A stretch of 35,090 nucleotides of DNA from a virus (lineage: Duplodnaviria > Heunggongvirae > Uroviricota > Caudoviricetes): IMG/VR virus record IMGVR_UViG_2671180963_000003; one strand, given 5' to 3'. Of this stretch, positions 2,115 through 29,496 are shown piece after piece (within the stretch, counting starts at the first letter, position 1; each line of letters starts with the position of its first letter). The translations under genes and the position numbers were made by a program. The notes under the pieces were generated by a model, which was not told the DNA's origin, did not search any database, and saw only the letters and a program-made list of their open reading frames with translations.

Positions 2115-2294
2115 TTAACAAACTTGAACGTTAATCTTTACCTGAATTTCGTATTTCTTCATTAGCTTGTAGAATCCGCTTCTATCAATTCCTTCCTTCT
2201 TAAAGAAGTTTTCCCCGCCTCGCTCAGTGTCGCTGTAAAAGCGTTTAGCAATATCAACAATCATTTCACGAGTGAACTTAACAGGTCTAGCCAT
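2115..2294 (-). CDS. small HTH DNA-binding protein (paralog of 5690..5917)
   Basis: ATG at 2294 with GAGGA 9 nt upstream; the ORF track began at an upstream GTG. Motif RPVKF...DIAKRFY...GIDRSGFYKLMKKY aligns with the 76 aa protein RPARF...DIAYAYY...GISIAQFYKNMKKL. Confidence 0.5.
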   Translation of the reverse strand: MARPVKFTREMIVDIAKRFYSDTERGGENFFKKEGIDRSGFYKLMKKYEIQVKINVQVC

Positions 2295-2395
2295 CAGTCG
2301 ATTCCTCACATGTGGATTAATAATTTCTTAAAAAGAGCATTTCGCTCTGAACACTTGTATTTATAAAATGATTTTCAGAAAACCCTGTAAAACCA

Positions 2396-2411
2396 CTGTA
2401 TATCCGATCAG
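2396..2411. promoter_or_regulatory. LexA (SOS) box-like site CTGT-N8-TCAG
   Basis: CTGTATATCCGATCAG; matches the CTGT-N8-ACAG consensus with one mismatch; abuts a candidate leftward promoter. Confidence 0.35.
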
Positions 2412-2480
2412 TGGGAGCACGAATTGCTAAAGAGAAGATTAATTATTAATCAATTCGTACAATATTCAACCGAAAAAGCA

Positions 2481-2496
2481 CTGTATATCTAACCAG
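2481..2496. promoter_or_regulatory. LexA (SOS) box-like site CTGT-N8-CCAG
   Basis: CTGTATATCTAACCAG; the first 12 nt are nearly identical to the site at 2396. Confidence 0.35.
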
Positions 2497-2498
2497 TG

Positions 2499-2514
2499 CT
2501 GTATGAATTAGCAG
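2499..2514. promoter_or_regulatory. LexA box-like site CTGT-N8-GCAG
   Basis: CTGTATGAATTAGCAG, immediately adjacent to the previous site. Confidence 0.25.
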
Positions 2515-2635
2515 TGAATCAGGAGATTTTCAGAAGTGAACAATCATTTCACACATGTATTTATAACGTGGAAATTCTTGCTTATCATCTATATGGGGAC
2601 TGTTTAGAAAATTTCAACCCCCACCAGTGAGAAAA

Positions 2636-2859: not shown

Positions 2860-3056
2860 ATTGCCCCTGAAATTCTGAATTTTTGCCCCCGAATAAAATC
2901 CCCAAGATTCTACTATCCCATTTTTGCCCCTGAAACCTACTATTTTTGCCCCTGAAATTCTGGGAAACAGTGATTTTGCCCCTCATTTTTGCCCCTGAAA
3001 TGCCAATAATTGCCCCTGAAAATCTAATTTTTGCCCCTGAAATTTGCCCCCGAAAA
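2860..3056 (+). repeat. array of about 9 direct repeats of TTGCCCCTGAAA (variants TTGCCCCCGAA) plus one inverted copy near 3100
   Basis: Copies start near 2860, 2883, 2924, 2946, 2977 (truncated), 2988, 3010, 3031 and 3045; GGGGCAAAA in inverted orientation at about 3100; an AT-rich segment precedes the array at 2800-2858. Confidence 0.8.
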
Positions 3057-3686: not shown

Positions 3687-4127
3687 ATGATCAATACTAA
3701 AACTCCTTTCGTACTTCTGGGTCTGGACTCTGAAAACTACGGCAACTTCCATATGCTAGAAGTTTTCGCTAATCGTGGTTATAACATCATTCGTCATTCC
3801 GAAGACTCCAACTACTCAACTGCTTTCTACGCTTTAAAACGAAATGGTCGTCCTACTGTGATCATCGACTGTCTTACTGATGAAGGTCGTCTTCAATACA
3901 ACGATATTCCAGCAATTATTGTTCGTGATGACCTGCCGTTTGATGTTCGTGAATACGACGTTGATTTAGGCTCTTACTATGGGATCGCCGATCTTGACCA
4001 GATTATGGCTGATTACGGTAAAGAAACCGCTCAGGAAGCCCCGGAAGATGACGAAGACTACGCTCCAATCTGTTTCTCTTCTCAGAATGGCTTCTACGGT
4101 TACGATGAAGGCTTAGATATGCTGTAA
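3687..4127 (+). CDS. strongly acidic early protein, function unknown (possible DNA-mimic/anti-restriction candidate)
   Basis: 146 aa ORF, AGAGGA Shine-Dalgarno; about 27 Asp/Glu versus about 10 Lys/Arg; first rightward gene after the large control region. Confidence 0.55.
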   Translation: MINTKTPFVLLGLDSENYGNFHMLEVFANRGYNIIRHSEDSNYSTAFYALKRNGRPTVIIDCLTDEGRLQYNDIPAIIVRDDLPFDVREYDVDLGSYYGIADLDQIMADYGKETAQEAPEDDEDYAPICFSSQNGFYGYDEGLDML

Positions 4128-4149
4128 GTTAGGTCAACCCTTTGGCATC

Positions 4150-4169
4150 TTGTCAAGGGGTATTGACAA
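4150..4169. promoter_or_regulatory. palindromic operator-like site TTGTCAA-N6-TTGACAA overlapping a promoter -35
   Basis: Perfect 7 bp inverted repeat with a 6 bp spacer; its right half-site is the -35 of the promoter at 4163-4191. Confidence 0.4.
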
Positions 4170-4191
4170 AATTTTATGACTTTTTTATGAT
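4163..4191 (+). promoter_or_regulatory. sigma70-like rightward promoter (TTGACA-17-TATGAT)
   Basis: TTGACA at 4163-4168, 17 nt spacer, TATGAT at 4186-4191; further TTGACA/TTGACC motifs at 4200 and 4217 suggest tandem promoters. Confidence 0.5.
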
Positions 4192-4247
4192 TATCGCACT
4201 TGACAACTTTGAACCTATTTGACCTAGATTTGTAAAGAGAATGTAAC

Positions 4248-4397
4248 ATGAAAGAATTTACCATCACTAAATCCCTGTATGACTGGACTGTTAAAATCTC
4301 CGGCAAAACCGTTTCTGTAACCCCTAGCCATGTAGAAAATGATTGGGTGTATCCCGTGAAACTATCTCCCGTAGTATGCATGTTCCGTTTGATCTGA
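4248..4397 (+). CDS. small ORF (49 aa), hypothetical
   Basis: ATG at 4248 downstream of the promoter; weak Shine-Dalgarno; absent from the ORF track because of its size; overlaps the next ORF by 22 nt in another frame. Confidence 0.25.
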   Translation: MKEFTITKSLYDWTVKISGKTVSVTPSHVENDWVYPVKLSPVVCMFRLI

Positions 4398-5496: not shown

Positions 5497-5504
5497 TAAT
5501 TTTT

Positions 5505-5529
5505 GCCCCTGAATTTCAGGGGCTTTTTT
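5505..5529 (+). terminator. rho-independent terminator built from the repeat motif
   Basis: GCCCCTG-aattt-CAGGGGC followed by TTTTTT immediately after the Rha-like gene; the stem contains the same GCCCCTGAA motif as the repeat array. Confidence 0.7.
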
Positions 5530-5689
5530 GTATCTGTAGATGCGCTGAACTTTAAGCGCATCCCTCCAGATTTGGATGCATCTATAGATCAGTCCAGATT
5601 TGGACTCAACTTAGAGATGAGCGCAGTTTTGCGCCGATTGTTTTACATACAAAAAAGCCACTCCGAAGAGTGGCAAAGAGAATCAAAAC

Positions 5690-5917
5690 TCAAAAACCTG
5701 TTGCTTCTACGATCTGACCATCACCGATCTGAACATAGAATTTAATGTCTAACTTCTTCATATTCTTATAGAATTGGGCGATTGAGATCCCATGTTCACT
5801 AAGAATCTGTTCTTTCGCTTCCTTACCACGATCCGCTGTATAATAAGCGTAGGCAATATCAGCCATTTGTTCAGCGTTAAAACGGGCAGGGCGACCGCGA
5901 GTAGCTTTAGTAGTCAT
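5690..5917 (-). CDS. small HTH DNA-binding protein (paralog of 2115..2294)
   Basis: Likely start ATG at 5917 (GGAG 9 nt upstream) rather than the track's GTG at 5950; ends with a Hin/resolvase-like HTH, GISIAQFYKNMKKL. Confidence 0.5.
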   Translation of the reverse strand: MTTKATRGRPARFNAEQMADIAYAYYTADRGKEAKEQILSEHGISIAQFYKNMKKLDIKFYVQIGDGQIVEATGF

Positions 5918-5952
5918 AGTCATTTTCTCCAAATTAAAGTGAATGTTCACCT

Positions 5953-6555
5953 TTATTTAGAGGACTTACATTTTATCGGAAAAAGTTCTCCATCGTCAAC
6001 CGACATAAAGAACTCTGCCTTAATCCCGTACTTCTTCAACCGTGAATAGTATGTACCCCGACTAATATCAACCTTGCGAAGCACTTCAAAGAACCCTTTA
6101 GGATCGTTGTAATAGTGGCTATAACGCACGTTAGCGAGTTCAACGAATAGTTCCCTTGTATCACCATAGCCTTTCTTGAAAGCCTCGTTACGATAGCGTG
6201 TAATTGCGTGATTCAATCTCTTCTGTTTCAACACTTCTCGGATCGGCTTCCACTGCAACCGATAGATAGGACCGTCATCAATGCGATAATAACGCTTGAT
6301 ATCAAAATCAAACCAATCTCGGACTCTCCGAAACTCTGTATGCGATGTTCTATGCTTCTTAAAGAAGTTGTGAACGTCTGTATAACCATTATCACGGTAA
6401 AATTCTATTAAAATCTCTTTCGCTTCCTCACGGCTAAAACCGGATGTTGTGTAATCAGTCTTTAAGTGCTTATGTTTTACTGGCAAACGATATTCATGAT
6501 CGGTACAAGACAAGGCTAATTCTAATTCATCTCTTTGTTGCTGATTAATTAGCAT
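5953..6555 (-). CDS. basic protein with HTH-like segments, function unknown
   Basis: 200 aa, AAGGGGG Shine-Dalgarno; C-terminal [16 protein letters not shown] resembles the HTH of the two small paralogs; antisense to the flanking Rha-like and terminase genes. Confidence 0.55.
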
Positions 6556-6642
6556 ACAACCCCCTTAAATCTTAATACCCGTATTTATCAAAAAATCAAC
6601 AATTTAATAAATACCTTCATATTTCGTAATGAGGGTAATTAC

Positions 6643-8550
6643 ATGAAACTAATTTCTAATAAGGCCAAATTAAAAAAGATTCTCAAAAATGCAGCCAAAT
6701 ATATTACGCCACCGCCTAAACTCCTTCCATCGGAATGGTGCGAAGCTAATATGGTGCTGGTAGATGGTCCTCAAGCTGGGGATAAAGTTAAATTGCTGTC
6801 ATTCCAGAAAGGTATGATTGATGCTCCTTTCCTTGAGAACAAGAAAAAGTATGTTCTGATGACCAGTGCGCAGATCGGAAAGACTACCATCTTGAACGGC
6901 ATCCTGTTTAACCAGATGGCTAACGATCCATGCAATATGATTATCGGACAATCAACCGCTAAAGAAATGTCTCAATATCTCGCTGGTAAGATCCGACCGT
7001 CTATCGAAGCATGTGATGCATTAAAAGACGTGGTTACAGACAAGAATGATCGCAATGCGGTTAACAACAATAACCAGCTACAGCTAAAAACGAATCACTT
7101 CCTGTACATGGTATCGCTAACCAGTCCATCGACCCTGCGCGGTAAGACTGCAAAGGTCGGACTACTAGACGAAATCGATGCTGCTACAGCCTCAGAAGAA
7201 GGTGATCCGGTGGCACTGGCTGCTAACCGTTTAACTACCTTTGGCGACGAAGGCCGATTAGTCGTATCCAGTACCCCGACCAGTAAGCTGGGAAGCATTA
7301 ACCAGCAATGGTTATCAAGCGATATGCGTATGTTTTTTGTTCCGTGTCCTCATTGCGGGGAACACCAGGTGATCGAGTGGGAAAACGTTCAATTTGAATG
7401 GCGTAACATCGATGGTAAGAACTTACCCGATCCTGATACCGCTCGTTATATTTGCCCCCACTGTAAGAACGCATGGACAGAAGGAGAGCGGATCAGGGCG
7501 GTGGCTGCTGGTGAATGGCGAGTAACCCGTGAAAGTGAAGTAGCCGGATTCTGGATCAGCCGTCTGTATTCACCATTCAGCACGATCCGCGCTTGTGTGG
7601 TTGATTTTAGTCATGCGTGGCAATCCTTTGATCTACAATCATTTTATAACACCGTGTTAGGCAAGGTATACGACGATCAGGACACGGCAGTAGAAGCAAA
7701 TGAACTGGAACAACTCAAAACAGATGTTTCTATCGAGAATATCCCTGATGACGTGATTTTCTTGTGTTCAGGAATTGACCAGCAATTGGACCGCGCAGAA
7801 TCTACCATCTTAGGTGTAGCGAAAGATAAGGTTTACATTCTGGATCACCGCAGCTTTTACGATCATAACTGTGAACGATATGAATCACCTGTTTGGGATC
7901 GCCTGGTTAACTTCAAGAAAACCAAATTCTATAACGTTAATGGTGAACGTGTACCAATGCTCGCCAGCTTCCTTGATACATCGAACGGTCGATTCACTCA
8001 AGCCGGATACCGTATTTGCGGCAAGTGGAAGAATCTACACGCGATCAAAGGTAGTTCATCTGGTAATGCTCCAGTGATTCCGGTTAAACCTACCCGCACA
8101 GGTGGTCATGAATTGCTTATGCTGGGTGTTAACGTTGGTAAATCCGCTGTTCGTGAAATGCTGGTTAGAAACCTGAAAGATAATCCTCATATTGGCTTAG
8201 AAATATCAGAAACCGTTCCTGATGATTATCTCGATCAGCTTTTGAGTGAATCCATCAAGCGTACTACTACTGGCGTGCGTTGGGTGAAAAATCCAGGTAG
8301 TACCCGAAACGAGGCTCTCGACTGTCTGGTTTATAGCTATGCTGCTTCTCGCTACGTTCTTTCAAAAATGTCATGGGATAAACTCATTGCAATGAAAGAC
8401 AGCTTAAACCGTGTTGTCGAAGAATCCGTAGAAGCTCCTAAATCGCAATCTGACGAGCAAATAGAAGAAACTAAGCCAATCACACGACCACAACGTCAAA
8501 ACATCGCCAGACGTCCAAATAGAGGCCGTAGCTGGGTAACATCGTTCTAA
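6643..8550 (+). CDS. terminase large subunit (lambda GpA-like)
   Basis: 635 aa; Walker A-like SAQIGKTT near residue 75; paired Cys motif CPHCG...CPHCKNAW typical of GpA-type terminases; sits at the head of the morphogenesis module; GAGGG Shine-Dalgarno. Confidence 0.8.
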
Positions 8551-14495: not shown

Positions 14496-17400
14496 ATGCA
14501 GTCGATCCAATTTAAACGAACAAATGTTTCTGGCAAAAAACCAACGCCGGAACAATTACAGGTCGGTGAGGTAGCAATCAACCTTAAAGACCATGTTATT
14601 TTTACCAAAGACCGAGATCATGAAGTAGTTCAAATCTCTGTTTCTCCTGAAACTCACGCGGCACTAGAATCTAAAGTTGATGCTAACAAACAAGAACTGG
14701 ATAGTACAATTGCAGTAAATGACCGCAATATTCACGCTAAAGTAGATGAAATTAAACAAACTACTGATGCAACCATCGCAGCAAATCACGTAGAAATTAA
14801 CAATAAAGTTGATGTAATTAAACGCGAAACCGACGCGACAATCGATGCCAATAAAAATAAAGCTGCTTCCGACCTTGCTGGTGTTAAAGCTGAATTGTCG
14901 GATACTATCAACGCTAATAAAAATGCGGCTGCTGTAGCAACACAGGAACTGGACACCCGCATCAATAAAAAAGTTGATGATATTAAATCCCGTACCGATG
15001 CAACCATCGCAAGCAATGACAAAGCAATCAATGACAAGGTTGATTTGATTAAGGCCGAGACTGATCGGACTATCGCAGCAAATAAAGCCTATGCGGAAAA
15101 TCAGTTAACTGACACCTACAATAACCTTACTGGTGTGATTGCAGCCAATAAGCAAGAGGCAGCGGATAACGTCGCAGCATTAACCCGTGATGTTGAAGCC
15201 AAAAATTCAGCAATTCATAGCAAAGTTGACAATAACAAGTCTTACACCGATTCCGAACTTGCACGTTTAGAAAGCCGTATTGATGCAGCCGATGGATCTA
15301 GTGACGGTAAGTACATCAAAAAACACGTAAACACTTATACTGATGGTTATTTGCTGTCTAAGACCGCAAACTATTTTGATGATCCAGGTGCTCGTAATCT
15401 TGATTACTTTGGTGCATTCCGTACCAATGATCTAGCTGATCATATTGCAATGATCTTGCATGTTCCGCACCCATCCGGTGTTAATCATGCTCGTGGTTTT
15501 GAGTTCACTTATGGGTCTAATCCACATGCTACGGTAAGAACATACGGCTATGATGAATTGGGTCATTTGGCATATTCTCACCGCATGTATCATGAAGGTG
15601 ATAAACCTACTCCTGCCGAAATTGGCGCATATTCGAAAGCAGAAATTGACCGACTGTTCCAGAAGACGCTTAATTTTGGTATCGAGGGTGGTTGGTTTAA
15701 ACTAGGCACTTTGACAATGCCACAACAACACGGTCGCACCGCTAAGATTCGTTTGGTTGGTGGTAACGGTTATAACGTCGGACAGAATGGACAAGCCAAT
15801 GTTATTGAACTGGTGATCCGTTGCGGCAACAATAGCCCGAAAGGTGTTGTATTCAATGCTTATTATAGCATTTGGTATTACGAACAATATTTTTGCGCAA
15901 TTCCTACCGATGGCGATAATTACGATCTTTACGCTTACTACGGTGCACATACAGGATTTGTTTTAGCAGAATATCAAGTTTCGTCCGGTGGTGTTTCTTT
16001 AAACCTGTTGGATACTCCTGAATATCTGGGTGGTGAAAAACCTGTTGCAGATGAAATTTTTGATGCTCTTAACATTTCATCATTCAATAACTTTAGCAAC
16101 CGTGGAACGTTAAATTTTGGTGGAAACCATCAAGGCCAATATGACATTGAGCATTTGAACGAACAACAAACAAATGCTAAGAAAAAGTTGCGTCGCTTCC
16201 GTAGTTCCGCACCCGCTACTATCTGGCATGAAACTGTAGATGATCAGAATTATCGTCTTGCTACTGGATACGATGATGTAAACCAACAATTATTGCTGTC
16301 GGCTGCATCCGGTTTGCATATTCGTAGAATGACCATTGATGGCGGTTTAGGTGGAAACTCAGCAATTGATTTTCGTCGTGGTCCAAATGAATCATGTCAT
16401 TTAAACTTCTTTGATTATCGCACTGGTACAGATGTTCGTAATGGCTGGTTTGGCTTCGGTGATGGTCAGACCAAAGATTTTATTTGGTGGAACGACAACG
16501 GTCAAAACTCTATAAACCTGATTGAAGACGGTGAATTACATATTACTGGCGGTAGAGGCCAGAAAATTGTAATGAATAGCGAAGTGGCATTATCTGAAAA
16601 TGCTCGTTTGGCTGTCAAAGGTGGTAACTATGGTTTAATCCTTCGTAATGATGGTTCTAGCTTCCATATTCTTACTACCGATTTAAAAGATTCCTTTGGG
16701 ACGTGGAACACTCGTAGACCATTTAGTTATGATTTCGCCGAAGGTGGATTAGATCTAGGTGGCACAGCTACCGCACGCTGTTTACATCTGGGAATTGATG
16801 GTAGCACCCGCATCGAAGATAATATGGTGTTTAGATCAGGGTCTCGTCAGTCAATGGACTATATTGAATTAATCCATTGGGGTAACAGTAATACAGGACG
16901 CAATAACGTTTTGAGTATGCGAGATTCCAAAGGTTTCTTGGCTGAATTTGAACGCGTGGGGGGTACTAACGGCGTTAAAACCAGATTCTTTGGCGAAACA
17001 TTCACTGATGGTACATTATACCTAAATCAGATGAATAATAGCTCTGAACGATTCTCTATTAATAATTGGGGAAATTCAGAAGTTGGTCGCGCGGCAGTAA
17101 TGGAAGTTGGCGATTCCAAAGGTTATCACTTCTATACTGAACGTAGGACAGATGACACCGTTTTATTTGATGTATCTGGTGCTTTGACCGTGCATGGACC
17201 TAACGGAATAACCGTCAAAAACTCAACTGGTGCACGCCATATCTGGTTTAGAGATGATAGCGATACGGAAAAGGCTGTTATCTGGGCTACAGATGAGGGT
17301 ATTTTACATATTCGCAATAACCACGGTGGACAATTTACACATCACTTCCAGGGCGCGATGATTAAACTGGAAGGGCGTGTTCCTTATGCCGCAGATCAAG

Positions 17401-18020
17401 GACTTATCCGTGGTGAGGTTTCTGGTGGTGCATATGTTGCATGGAGAGACCGACCTGCTGGTTTGTTGGTTGACTGTCAACAAAGCGTTGATAGTGCTCA
17501 TGCTATTTGGAAAGCGGTTGATTGGGGGCGTAACTACATCGCTGCTATGGACGTTCATTGTCCCGGTGATAGTAATAATACTGCGGCAGCGGTTCTTCAT
17601 GTTCAGGGTGCTGATTATCAATTCCATGCAAGTGGAGAATTTCATGCCACTGGTAACGGAAACTTTAACGATGTTTATATTCGTTCCGATCGTCGTCTGA
17701 AAATTAATGTTGAAGATTACGAAGAAAATGCGGTGGATAAGGTAAATAAACTCAAAGTTAAAACCTACGATAAAGTTAAATCTCTTAATGACCGAGAAGT
17801 TATAGGTCATGAGATTGGTATTATCGCACAGGATTTACAAGAGGTATTACCGGAAGCTGTTAAAACCGCAAAAATTGGTGGTTTTGATAACCCAGAAGAA
17901 ATTTTAACAATTTCAAACTCCGCAGTGAACGCGCTTTTAATTAAAGCGGTCCAAGAAATGAGCGAAGAAAATAAACTTCTTCGTGAACGTCTTGCTGCAA
18001 TTGAAGCTAAATTAGGGTAA
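14496..18020 (+). CDS. tail fibre with C-terminal intramolecular chaperone (S74-like) domain
   Basis: 1174 aa. N-terminus MQSIQFKRTNVSGKKPTPEQLQVGEVAINLKDHVIFTKD resembles the T4 gp37-type fibre N-terminus from memory; repeated KVDxIKxxTDATIxAN units; WGNSEVGRAAVMEVGDSKGYHFYTERR resembles a T-even fibre domain; C-terminal DRRLKINVEDYEE...IAQDLQEVLPEAV...coiled coil resembles the self-cleaving chaperone of endosialidase/T5 pb1-type fibres. Confidence 0.8.
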   Translation: MQSIQFKRTNVSGKKPTPEQLQVGEVAINLKDHVIFTKDRDHEVVQISVSPETHAALESKVDANKQELDSTIAVNDRNIHAKVDEIKQTTDATIAANHVEINNKVDVIKRETDATIDANKNKAASDLAGVKAELSDTINANKNAAAVATQELDTRINKKVDDIKSRTDATIASNDKAINDKVDLIKAETDRTIAANKAYAENQLTDTYNNLTGVIAANKQEAADNVAALTRDVEAKNSAIHSKVDNNKSYTDSELARLESRIDAADGSSDGKYIKKHVNTYTDGYLLSKTANYFDDPGARNLDYFGAFRTNDLADHIAMILHVPHPSGVNHARGFEFTYGSNPHATVRTYGYDELGHLAYSHRMYHEGDKPTPAEIGAYSKAEIDRLFQKTLNFGIEGGWFKLGTLTMPQQHGRTAKIRLVGGNGYNVGQNGQANVIELVIRCGNNSPKGVVFNAYYSIWYYEQYFCAIPTDGDNYDLYAYYGAHTGFVLAEYQVSSGGVSLNLLDTPEYLGGEKPVADEIFDALNISSFNNFSNRGTLNFGGNHQGQYDIEHLNEQQTNAKKKLRRFRSSAPATIWHETVDDQNYRLATGYDDVNQQLLLSAASGLHIRRMTIDGGLGGNSAIDFRRGPNESCHLNFFDYRTGTDVRNGWFGFGDGQTKDFIWWNDNGQNSINLIEDGELHITGGRGQKIVMNSEVALSENARLAVKGGNYGLILRNDGSSFHILTTDLKDSFGTWNTRRPFSYDFAEGGLDLGGTATARCLHLGIDGSTRIEDNMVFRSGSRQSMDYIELIHWGNSNTGRNNVLSMRDSKGFLAEFERVGGTNGVKTRFFGETFTDGTLYLNQMNNSSERFSINNWGNSEVGRAAVMEVGDSKGYHFYTERRTDDTVLFDVSGALTVHGPNGITVKNSTGARHIWFRDDSDTEKAVIWATDEGILHIRNNHGGQFTHHFQGAMIKLEGRVPYAADQGLIRGEVSGGAYVAWRDRPAGLLVDCQQSVDSAHAIWKAVDWGRNYIAAMDVHCPGDSNNTAAAVLHVQGADYQFHASGEFHATGNGNFNDVYIRSDRRLKINVEDYEENAVDKVNKLKVKTYDKVKSLNDREVIGHEIGIIAQDLQEVLPEAVKTAKIGGFDNPEEILTISNSAVNALLIKAVQEMSEENKLLRERLAAIEAKLG
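14676..15080 (+). repeat. imperfect tandem ~66-69 bp repeats within the fibre gene
   Basis: At least four consecutive units encoding (H/N/K/D)KVD(E/V/D/L)IK(Q/R/S/A)(T/E)TD(A/R)TI(A/D)(A/S)N; a coding repeat, not a separate element. Confidence 0.6.
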
Positions 18021-29458: not shown

Positions 29459-29496
29459 TCCATAAATACCCTCATAGAAACTTATGGGGGTATAAC

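Follow-up and report, generated by a model that had tools for sequence, protein, structure and literature searches.

Described systems with which the genes considered here can be compared include Mor and C of phage Mu, small paralogous phage helix-turn-helix (HTH) proteins, which act at successive stages and at promoters poorly matching the consensus, one of them adjoining the late genes. In details of the fold Mor and C, as dimers whose HTH is C-terminal, differ from the proteins considered here. Also among the closest known systems are DNA binders with a bipartite HTH in a single chain, namely, those of the Tc3/paired type and the N-terminal domain of CENP-B. The present analysis deals with three genes for predicted HTH proteins, p200, p75 and p59, in the IMG/VR virus record IMGVR_UViG_2671180963_000003 (Caudoviricetes). 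The whole stretch of 35,090 nt that was analysed, hereafter the window, represents most of a prophage of ~36 kb, and the same element interrupts the gene ycdX in Escherichia coli ES2. Genes p200 and p75 form a minus-strand cassette between a Rha-like gene and the gene of the large terminase subunit TerL, and p59 lies farther to the left. The resemblance to Mor and C is an analogy in the mode of action only: the paralogs have no match to Pfam Mor (PF08765), which was seen only in unrelated tandem-HTH proteins, and the orientation of the genes here is divergent.

The products of p200, p75 and p59 are tentatively regarded, with confidence somewhat short of even, as regulators by which the phage controls its own transcription; they would act at a pair of back-to-back promoters, one of which serves the late (TerL) operon. 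Such a role is proposed for p200 because terminators are expected to isolate the late operon, the late promoters look weaker, the paralogs are the evident DNA binders besides the Rha-like protein, and the putative p200 promoter shares the space of the late promoter. Regulation was one of the options of an earlier interpretation of these genes (the original prediction), and it survives as the best explanation, the rival functions being assigned to other genes: the role of the small terminase subunit (TerS) is taken by a gene of PHROG_57, and iteron specificity by the 320-aa protein p320.

Paralogous HTH genes

The family is represented by three genes, all located on the minus strand of the window:

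5953..6555, minus strand: p200 gene (200 aa); open reading frame (ORF), PGAP gene in ES2, 42 homolog clusters, all 'hypothetical', AlphaFold2 (AF2) model with a mean predicted local distance difference test score (pLDDT) of 74, ratio of nonsynonymous to synonymous substitution rates (dN/dS) 0.08-0.17
6256..6450, minus strand: N-terminal HTH-hairpin domain of p200, residues 36-100; BLASTP to p75 and p59, hmmsearch i-E 3.4e-20, hhalign
5968..6174, minus strand: C-terminal HTH-hairpin domain of p200, residues 128-196; BLASTP to p59 at E=5e-6, shuffle z 9.1-9.2, AF2
5690..5917 (longer ORF to 5950, 86 aa), minus strand: p75 gene (75 aa), one HTH domain; ORF, PGAP, AF2, 23 homolog clusters, dN/dS 0.03-0.25
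2115..2294, minus strand: p59 gene (59 aa), third paralog, single HTH domain without the full hairpin; ORF, BLASTP, shuffles, homologs P0074-P0111

Both cassette genes, called earlier from the ORFs, were confirmed: the ORFs are present, and RefSeq/PGAP annotation of E. coli ES2 calls the same 228- and 603-nt genes, although the product of 5690..5917 comprises 75 aa, not 76 aa as first given. Across the cassette genes dN/dS is 0.03-0.25; therefore, both are real genes under purifying selection. The isoelectric points of the proteins are 9.0-9.6. Since only 35 nt separate the p200 stop codon from the start of p75, an interval in which no terminator site was reported, the two genes are probably co-transcribed.

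The predicted three-member family of HTH paralogs was borne out by BLASTP and shuffle statistics. Protein p75 matches p59 at E=7e-10 and residues 40-97 of p200 at E=2e-4, while p59 matches p200 twice, at residues 133-186 (E=5e-6) and 40-87 (E=6e-4); local-alignment z-scores of the paralogs are 5.5-13.3, the observed score being reached by 0-2 of 2000 shuffles. The suggestion that the 200-aa protein ends with the same HTH type proved correct but incomplete, as the protein contains two copies of the domain rather than the C-terminal one alone. Families of its N- and C-terminal domains (14 orthologs) align in register over 59 columns (hhalign E=6.5e-6). Accordingly, the domain of ~60 aa is present in four copies across the three genes, and a profile scan of all 519 six-frame ORFs of the window gave no fifth.

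In AF2 models the domain is represented by three helices and a beta-hairpin, i.e., a winged tri-helical HTH. The model of p75 (pLDDT 80) contains a single helix-helix-helix-hairpin unit (H15-27, H32-41, H46-55, E61-64, E68-71). In p200 two such units follow a disordered N-terminus with one conserved helix (residues 5-16); they are joined by a poorly modelled linker of ~30 residues, and the C-terminal domain has helices at 134-175 and a strand at 180-186. The family also has a basic N-terminal (G)RPxxF arm, RGRPARF in p75.

Nothing significant was found for p59, p75 and p200 in Pfam, PHROG, NCBIfam and BFVD; sequence and profile searches of the PDB, tblastn in 50,697 phage records and a scan of GTDB representative genomes gave no match or relative. 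The family profile retrieved only 34 proteins from 1.84 billion representatives. The true relatives among them are all small enterobacterial or metagenomic proteins, and the remainder are tandem HTH_Tnp_1/HTH_23/HTH_28/HTH_7 proteins. Since the distant profile matches are of this tandem kind, the domain is assigned, at the level of sequence comparison, to the HTH class of transposases and resolvases, as a divergent representative with a wing, outside every curated family. The Hin-like type named in the original prediction thus holds as remote kinship but not as membership: neither HTH_7 nor any other Pfam HTH model matches the three window proteins at E<=1, and for the p75 homolog of the related locus L057 the matches to HTH_Tnp_1 (0.019) and HTH_7 (0.031) fall short of the cut-off. 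Profiles of the excisionase/AlpA/MerR-type winged HTH (HTH_17, Phage_AlpA) were not matched, nor do the paralogs have the two-helix HTH plus wing of that type. Compared with the homeodomain-like tri-helical HTH of Hin/resolvase and IS3/IS630-type transposases, the paralogs add a C-terminal beta-hairpin; unlike these enzymes, they have no catalytic recombinase or transposase domain and stand alone or in tandem in one chain.

Position of the cassette in related prophages

The large terminase of the GpA type is encoded at 77-100% identity to the window TerL in 22 IMG/VR contigs, and the same PHP-domain gene flanks the element in Salmonella and Proteus relatives. Among INPHARED cultured phages none is nearer than 43% identity in TerL; in the nearest, DCP80, the ORFs upstream of TerL have no evident similarity to p75 or p200 in a by-eye comparison. 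Literature searches returned nothing relevant to this prophage, to the accessions of its proteins, to prophages in ycdX or to divergent TerS genes.

A tblastn map of the E. coli loci extending upstream of TerL shows p200 in each of them (21 of 21), and in ES2, as the divergent neighbour on the upstream side of TerL, followed by p75. The same arrangement was found in metagenome, Salmonella and Proteus relatives, where p200 is 41-68% identical; p75 is absent from one Salmonella relative, L027. The early genes around the cassette are mosaic, with identities of 38-94% for Rha and 48-97% for p59 and with p320 present or replaced, while p200 stays at 89-99%. Thus, the cassette is a core, conserved part of this prophage family.

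These data bear on the suggestion that the cassette is a moron-like or regulatory insertion, i.e., a horizontally acquired accessory unit, transcribed independently and benefiting the lysogen. Its antisense orientation within a rightward-transcribed region, a promoter-like element (a putative promoter) 32 nt ahead of the start codon and a terminator of its own agree with such an origin. Nevertheless, the synteny comparison places it at the same site in every relative examined from three genera, with the exception of L057, so its presence is not sporadic; its GC content (0.40-0.42) corresponds to that of the phage (mean 0.417); one of the other core genes of the phage is its paralog; and purifying selection acts on it as on the rest of the phage. 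A moron is therefore hardly credible.

Several lysogens carry a truncated p200 (P0018, P0022, P0025, P0029; L066:10001-10387). In one lysogen a deletion took the C-terminal domain of p200, p75 and Rha, leaving the structural operon intact, and another truncation fuses residues 1-135 of p200 to the antisense of window positions ~4100-4290. These truncations look like recurrent decay of the cassette part of the prophage.

Terminators and the p200/TerL control region

The cassette is delimited by the following elements:

5505..5523, plus strand: intrinsic terminator ending the Rha-like gene; it and the cassette terminator are convergent
5657..5674, minus strand: intrinsic terminator of p200-p75, GCCACTC-TTCG-GAGTGGC followed by TTTTTT; terminator prediction and sequence
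6556..6642: 87-bp divergent control region between p200 and TerL, with two inverted copies of ATAAATAC at 6581-6588 (minus) and 6607-6614 (plus)
6643..8550, plus strand: GpA-type large terminase TerL, first gene of the late operon; Pfam GpA_ATPase 1.6e-56, GpA_nuclease 2.6e-44

The plus-strand terminator noted earlier to the left of the cassette was thereby located at the end of the Rha-like gene (Pfam Phage_pRha 9e-14). This convergent pair should shield the late operon from rightward transcription arising upstream.

Phylogenetic footprinting showed that inverted GTATTTAT and ATAAATAC persist in the control region of seven divergent relatives, each element starting 33-36 nt upstream of the start codon of its own gene. 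The distance between the inverted elements varies from 0 to 26 bp among relatives, and they overlap in L024 and L027. The element is not confined to this region: ATAAATAC occurs six times in the window versus 1.95 expected, and it is enriched in the relatives L057 (9 versus 2.1), L060 (12 versus 3.3) and L027 (7 versus 2.3). Of the eight window sites of the word TAAATAC, seven fall in non-coding DNA, which makes up 13% of the window; sites are located at 2363, 2563 and 6587 on the minus strand and at 6608, 12858 and 29463 on the plus strand. For most transcription units checked, the word stands ahead of the first gene and is oriented with it. The distance is 24-41 nt for p200, the p164 homolog, TerL, a tail-fibre gene, the gene following the capsid gene (12883) and the lysis gene (29497), and 49-70 nt for p59, the p146 homologs and the Rha homologs. 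Early units mostly have the full TATAAATAC, whereas late units (TerL, the 12883 gene and the lysis gene) have the degenerate forms NATAAATAC or NNTAAATAC.

Accordingly, the ATAAATAC/TAAATAC word reads as a putative phage promoter (-10-like) element, and the 'palindrome' between p200 and TerL as two probable back-to-back promoters. An operator of p200 consisting of the GTATTTAT/ATAAATAC palindrome was considered and downgraded to a promoter element because the half-site spacing ranges over 0-26 bp and the same 7-8-mer stands before most of the units checked. The late promoter of phage T4 is TATAAATA, which the TAAATAC word resembles; no gp55-like protein was found, and the resemblance is given no weight. 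A search for allele-specific k-mers as the target of p75 gave matches confined to p75 itself and its terminator. The region 5530-5645 was also examined as a cos site and rejected, its spacer ranging from 86 to 819 bp among relatives.

As a separate observation, the leader of TerL (6612-6637, plus strand) and that of the gene for a 115-aa protein before the endolysin gene (29466-29492, plus strand) have the 15-mer ATAAATACCYTCATA in common, and both fold into hairpins sequestering the Shine-Dalgarno sequence (z -3.3 and -4.9). In L024 and L057 the leader stems have another sequence with pairing retained, as judged by eye. These hairpins may provide translational control of late genes.

Small terminase subunit

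Protein p200 shares with lambda gpNu1 and PHROG_57 proteins a position directly upstream of a GpA-type TerL, a length of ~200 aa and a winged HTH; it differs from them in being encoded on the opposite strand, in lacking a profile match and in showing no co-variation with the TerL N-terminus. These likenesses raise the possibility that p200 and p75 represent an inverted small terminase or a cos-binding packaging accessory at the Nu1 position, the more so as no TerS is recognisable within the window and p200 is a predicted DNA-binding protein. However, neither p200 nor p75 has a TerS match in Pfam, PHROG or NCBIfam, p200 has no oligomerisation core, and a separate gene is present in relatives. 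Genes of ES2 (184 aa), L057 (196 aa) and L024 match PHROG_57 'terminase small subunit' over the full profile with E-values of 2.8e-15 (the 184-aa gene) to 1.3e-23, the matches to Pfam Phage_Nu1 being weak. Every relative extending far enough has this Nu1-like TerS gene, which shares the strand of TerL and precedes it by ~6.6 kb; in ES2 the gene (L023:5446-6000, plus strand) ends one base before the position aligning with window base 1. A GC-rich segment preceding it (L023:5270-5370) may be a cos site.

The residues 1-40 of TerL fall to 60% identity in L016 and L018, where p200 is 96% and 89% identical, respectively, i.e., no co-variation is seen; in L057 the p200 copy stands away from TerL. 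The small-terminase idea was dropped because a PHROG_57/Nu1-like gene is found in relatives to the left of the position of the window, and this identity of p200 is largely refuted on account of the separate TerS, the missing profile match and the missing co-variation; it is considered very improbable. The 200-aa protein is thus not the conventional small terminase that would have contradicted the original prediction.

The separation of TerS and TerL by the whole early/replication region is unusual for a lambda-type packaging module. In L057 a gene for a 543-aa protein with reverse-transcriptase and TIR domains (L057:10543-12174) adjoins the TerS gene at the prophage end; it is likely an anti-phage defence gene.

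The p59 unit and the iteron array

Gene p59 is the first in the leftward unit p59-p320-p113, located beside an array of iterons. Its upstream region is organised as follows:

2357..2564, minus strand: region upstream of p59 with two TTATAAATAC promoter-like elements (2357-2364 and 2557-2564) and two LexA-box-like palindromes

The palindromes, CACTGTATATCCGATCAGTG at 2395-2412 and CACTGTATATCTAACCAGTG at 2480-2497, fit CTG-N10-CAG. The pattern ACTGTATAT-N5-CAGT has two exact matches versus 0.05 expected, and the looser ACTGTAT-N7-CAGT has matches in eight relatives. The window contains no recognised CI-like repressor, so that the SOS response may control the element directly.

The array at 2861-3054 consists of 8-9 copies of a TTGCCCCTGAA-type repeat (8 versus 0.43 expected) with a phasing of ~21-22 bp. 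Such an array is present only in loci where the N-terminal 244 residues of p320 (1038-2000) are 91-97% identical to those of the window. Other arrays occupy the same place in other relatives, namely, AAACCTACACTA in L001 and L005, ACTAGnAAnnG in L024 and TCAAATGCTA/TCGGATGCTA-type repeats in L057. The window allele of p59 (96.6% identity) occurs in five loci without the TGCCCC array (L001, L002, L006, L013 and L021), of which L001 was the one examined for its own AAACCTACACTA array, and p200 is constant across all array types. Because the repeat sequence co-varies with p320 and not with p59, p75 or p200, the array looks like iterons of p320 and not like a target of the HTH paralogs; judged by this co-variation, the array and p320 behave as a probable iteron-initiator pair, and p320 itself has no family match. 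The proposal that the paralogs are the proteins binding the repeat array is therefore abandoned. A further exact copy of the iteron 11-mer TTGCCCCTGAA is contained in the stem of the Rha terminator (5503-5513); it is kept in most relatives, whatever their array type, and may be a coincidence.

A related module was found in a T4-like metagenome contig of 168 kb (L063:5170-6323). It comprises an array of AGCGATTAC iterons, a gene for a p59-like protein of 64 aa and one for a protein of 204 aa, the N-terminus of which aligns with the p320 family (hhalign E=1e-4), and it is inserted on the opposite strand between gp3-like and gp2 genes. Therefore, the module of iterons, small HTH gene and p320 looks portable. 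Together with the layout of L057, where genes similar to all three paralogs share a unit with p377, a p320-like gene, this contig points to an origin of the family in a replication/early module.

Such an origin raises the alternative that the paralogs are accessory DNA binders of replication, acting at or near the origin with the 320-aa protein or auto-regulating its operon. The constant position of p59 directly upstream of p320 and beside the iterons, the recurrence of the trio in the T4-like contig and the tandem unit of L057, running leftward from the iterons, are consistent with it. Against it, the array sequence follows the N-terminal domain of p320 rather than p59, and in nearly all relatives p200 and p75 are located 3 kb from the array, beside TerL. 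Replication accessory function is considered unlikely.

Recombination directionality factor

A large serine recombinase (564 aa) is encoded at the right end of the ES2 element (PHROG_95 match 1.9e-63). No common fold unites the recombination directionality factors (RDFs) of large serine integrases, and moonlighting DNA-binding proteins can fill this role (PMC11795197, PMC12286644). One of the options of the original prediction was that the HTH proteins are RDFs for the serine recombinase. In the form considered here, p59 or p75 would be the RDF and would bind the junction of DBD2 and the coiled coil of the integrase for excision from ycdX. No window protein matched a known excisionase or RDF family, and the position of p59 as the first gene behind LexA-type boxes would give a suitable time of expression.

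The option found no support in the distribution of alleles: integrase alleles (99, 92, 87 and 73%) combine freely with those of p75 (about 100, 70 and 57%) and p59 (97 or about 55%), although integrases 73-99% identical could keep a conserved interface. In addition, the Salmonella relative L027 has no p75; gene calls in the T4-like contig with the p59-like and p320-like genes and iterons include no recombinase over the 13.6 kb examined; and the conserved RPxxF arm together with the HTH suggests binding of DNA rather than of integrase. An RDF function is thus improbable. If it were true, one of the paralogs would be the missing excision partner of a serine integrase that is new and has a defined target site in E. 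coli.

Proposed regulation of the late operon

The regulatory role tentatively favoured here can be described as follows. The terminators would halt upstream rightward transcription, and late transcription would therefore have to start in the 87-bp gap between p200 and TerL. Protein p200, with its two non-identical HTHs and conserved N-terminal helix, would bind in or beside this gap, perhaps with p75, and would limit its own promoter while giving RNA polymerase access to promoters of the late type, which look weaker (NATAAATAC in place of TATAAATAC). As the early paralog, p59 would be produced together with the 320-aa protein that binds the iterons, under a promoter with LexA-type boxes. The three proteins would then form a cascade of paralogous regulators, similar to Mor and C of phage Mu, at a divergent-promoter switch. 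The activator part of this scheme is put forward with less confidence than the regulatory role as a whole.

The divergent arrangement also suggests another possibility, namely that p200, with or without p75, is a maintenance repressor made in the lysogen and shutting the divergent late promoter, in the manner of cI and PRM-PR. The gene is divergent from the lytic operon, the promoter elements are back-to-back or overlapping, a CI-like repressor is missing among the recognised window proteins, and a promoter and terminator of its own give p200 the anatomy of an independently expressed gene. On the other hand, p200 is 89-99% identical in E. coli relatives, like structural genes, the control region is conserved, and allelic diversity of the immunity type is not seen; the p200 module has not been exchanged with the highly mosaic early region. 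Domain scans revealed no S24 peptidase or other induction-sensing domain. Moreover, there are lysogens with p200 devoid of the C-terminal domain and without p75, beside an intact structural operon; silence of the prophage would thus not depend on the cassette. Because of this deletion and the lack of allelic diversity, the role of maintenance repressor is less likely, and a factor of the lytic cycle fits better; the repressor is assessed as distinctly improbable.

Several results weigh against the regulatory role of the paralogs. The searches gave no homolog of known function for them, and their sequences are compatible with either an activator or a repressor. In the rearranged relative L057 the cassette is located ~3 kb from TerL, with Rha abutting TerL, and the p200-like (frameshifted), p75-like, p59-like and p320-like (p377) genes form one tandem leftward unit starting at the iterons; therefore, linkage to the late promoter is not universal. 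The data agree equally well with a function in the replication/early module. Rather than a specific operator, ATAAATAC seems to be a promoter element of a general kind, and no DNA site co-varying with p75 alleles or with p200 divergence was found.

A more far-reaching version would be a cascade of paralogs of a kind not yet described, in which p200 acts as a single-chain two-HTH toggle of RNA polymerase between back-to-back TAAATAC-type promoters, and/or a small paralog moonlights as the RDF, the module of p59, p320 and iterons being portable and common to T4-like phages. This version is viewed as rather unlikely.

Other features of the prophage

An Rfam scan of the window revealed no RNA families. 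At the 3' end of TerL (8420-8483) a stretch of 56-64 nt is 81-86% identical to T4-like phages (Krischvirus and relatives), in which its counterparts are located inside genes annotated as methyltransferase or hypothetical. A protein of 1174 aa is encoded at 14496-18020 between head and tail genes, an unusual place for a fibre gene; its ES2 counterpart is annotated by PGAP as 'tail fiber domain-containing', and homologs in the relatives match Peptidase_S74 and Gp34_trimer.

Significance

The prophages analysed represent a widespread, unstudied lineage of ~36 kb, inserting into ycdX of E. coli, Salmonella and Proteus. Their layout is unusual: the early region splits TerS from TerL, LexA-type boxes stand in place of a recognisable repressor, and one promoter-like motif precedes most units. 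The paralogs are the sole evident (predicted) phage-specific DNA-binding proteins of the window besides the Rha-like protein. What is new is the definition of a small orphan winged-HTH family, the kind of protein itself being ordinary; this definition, together with the correction of an annotation guess, is the main yield at present. Assigning the paralogs would explain the timing of late genes in the prophage.

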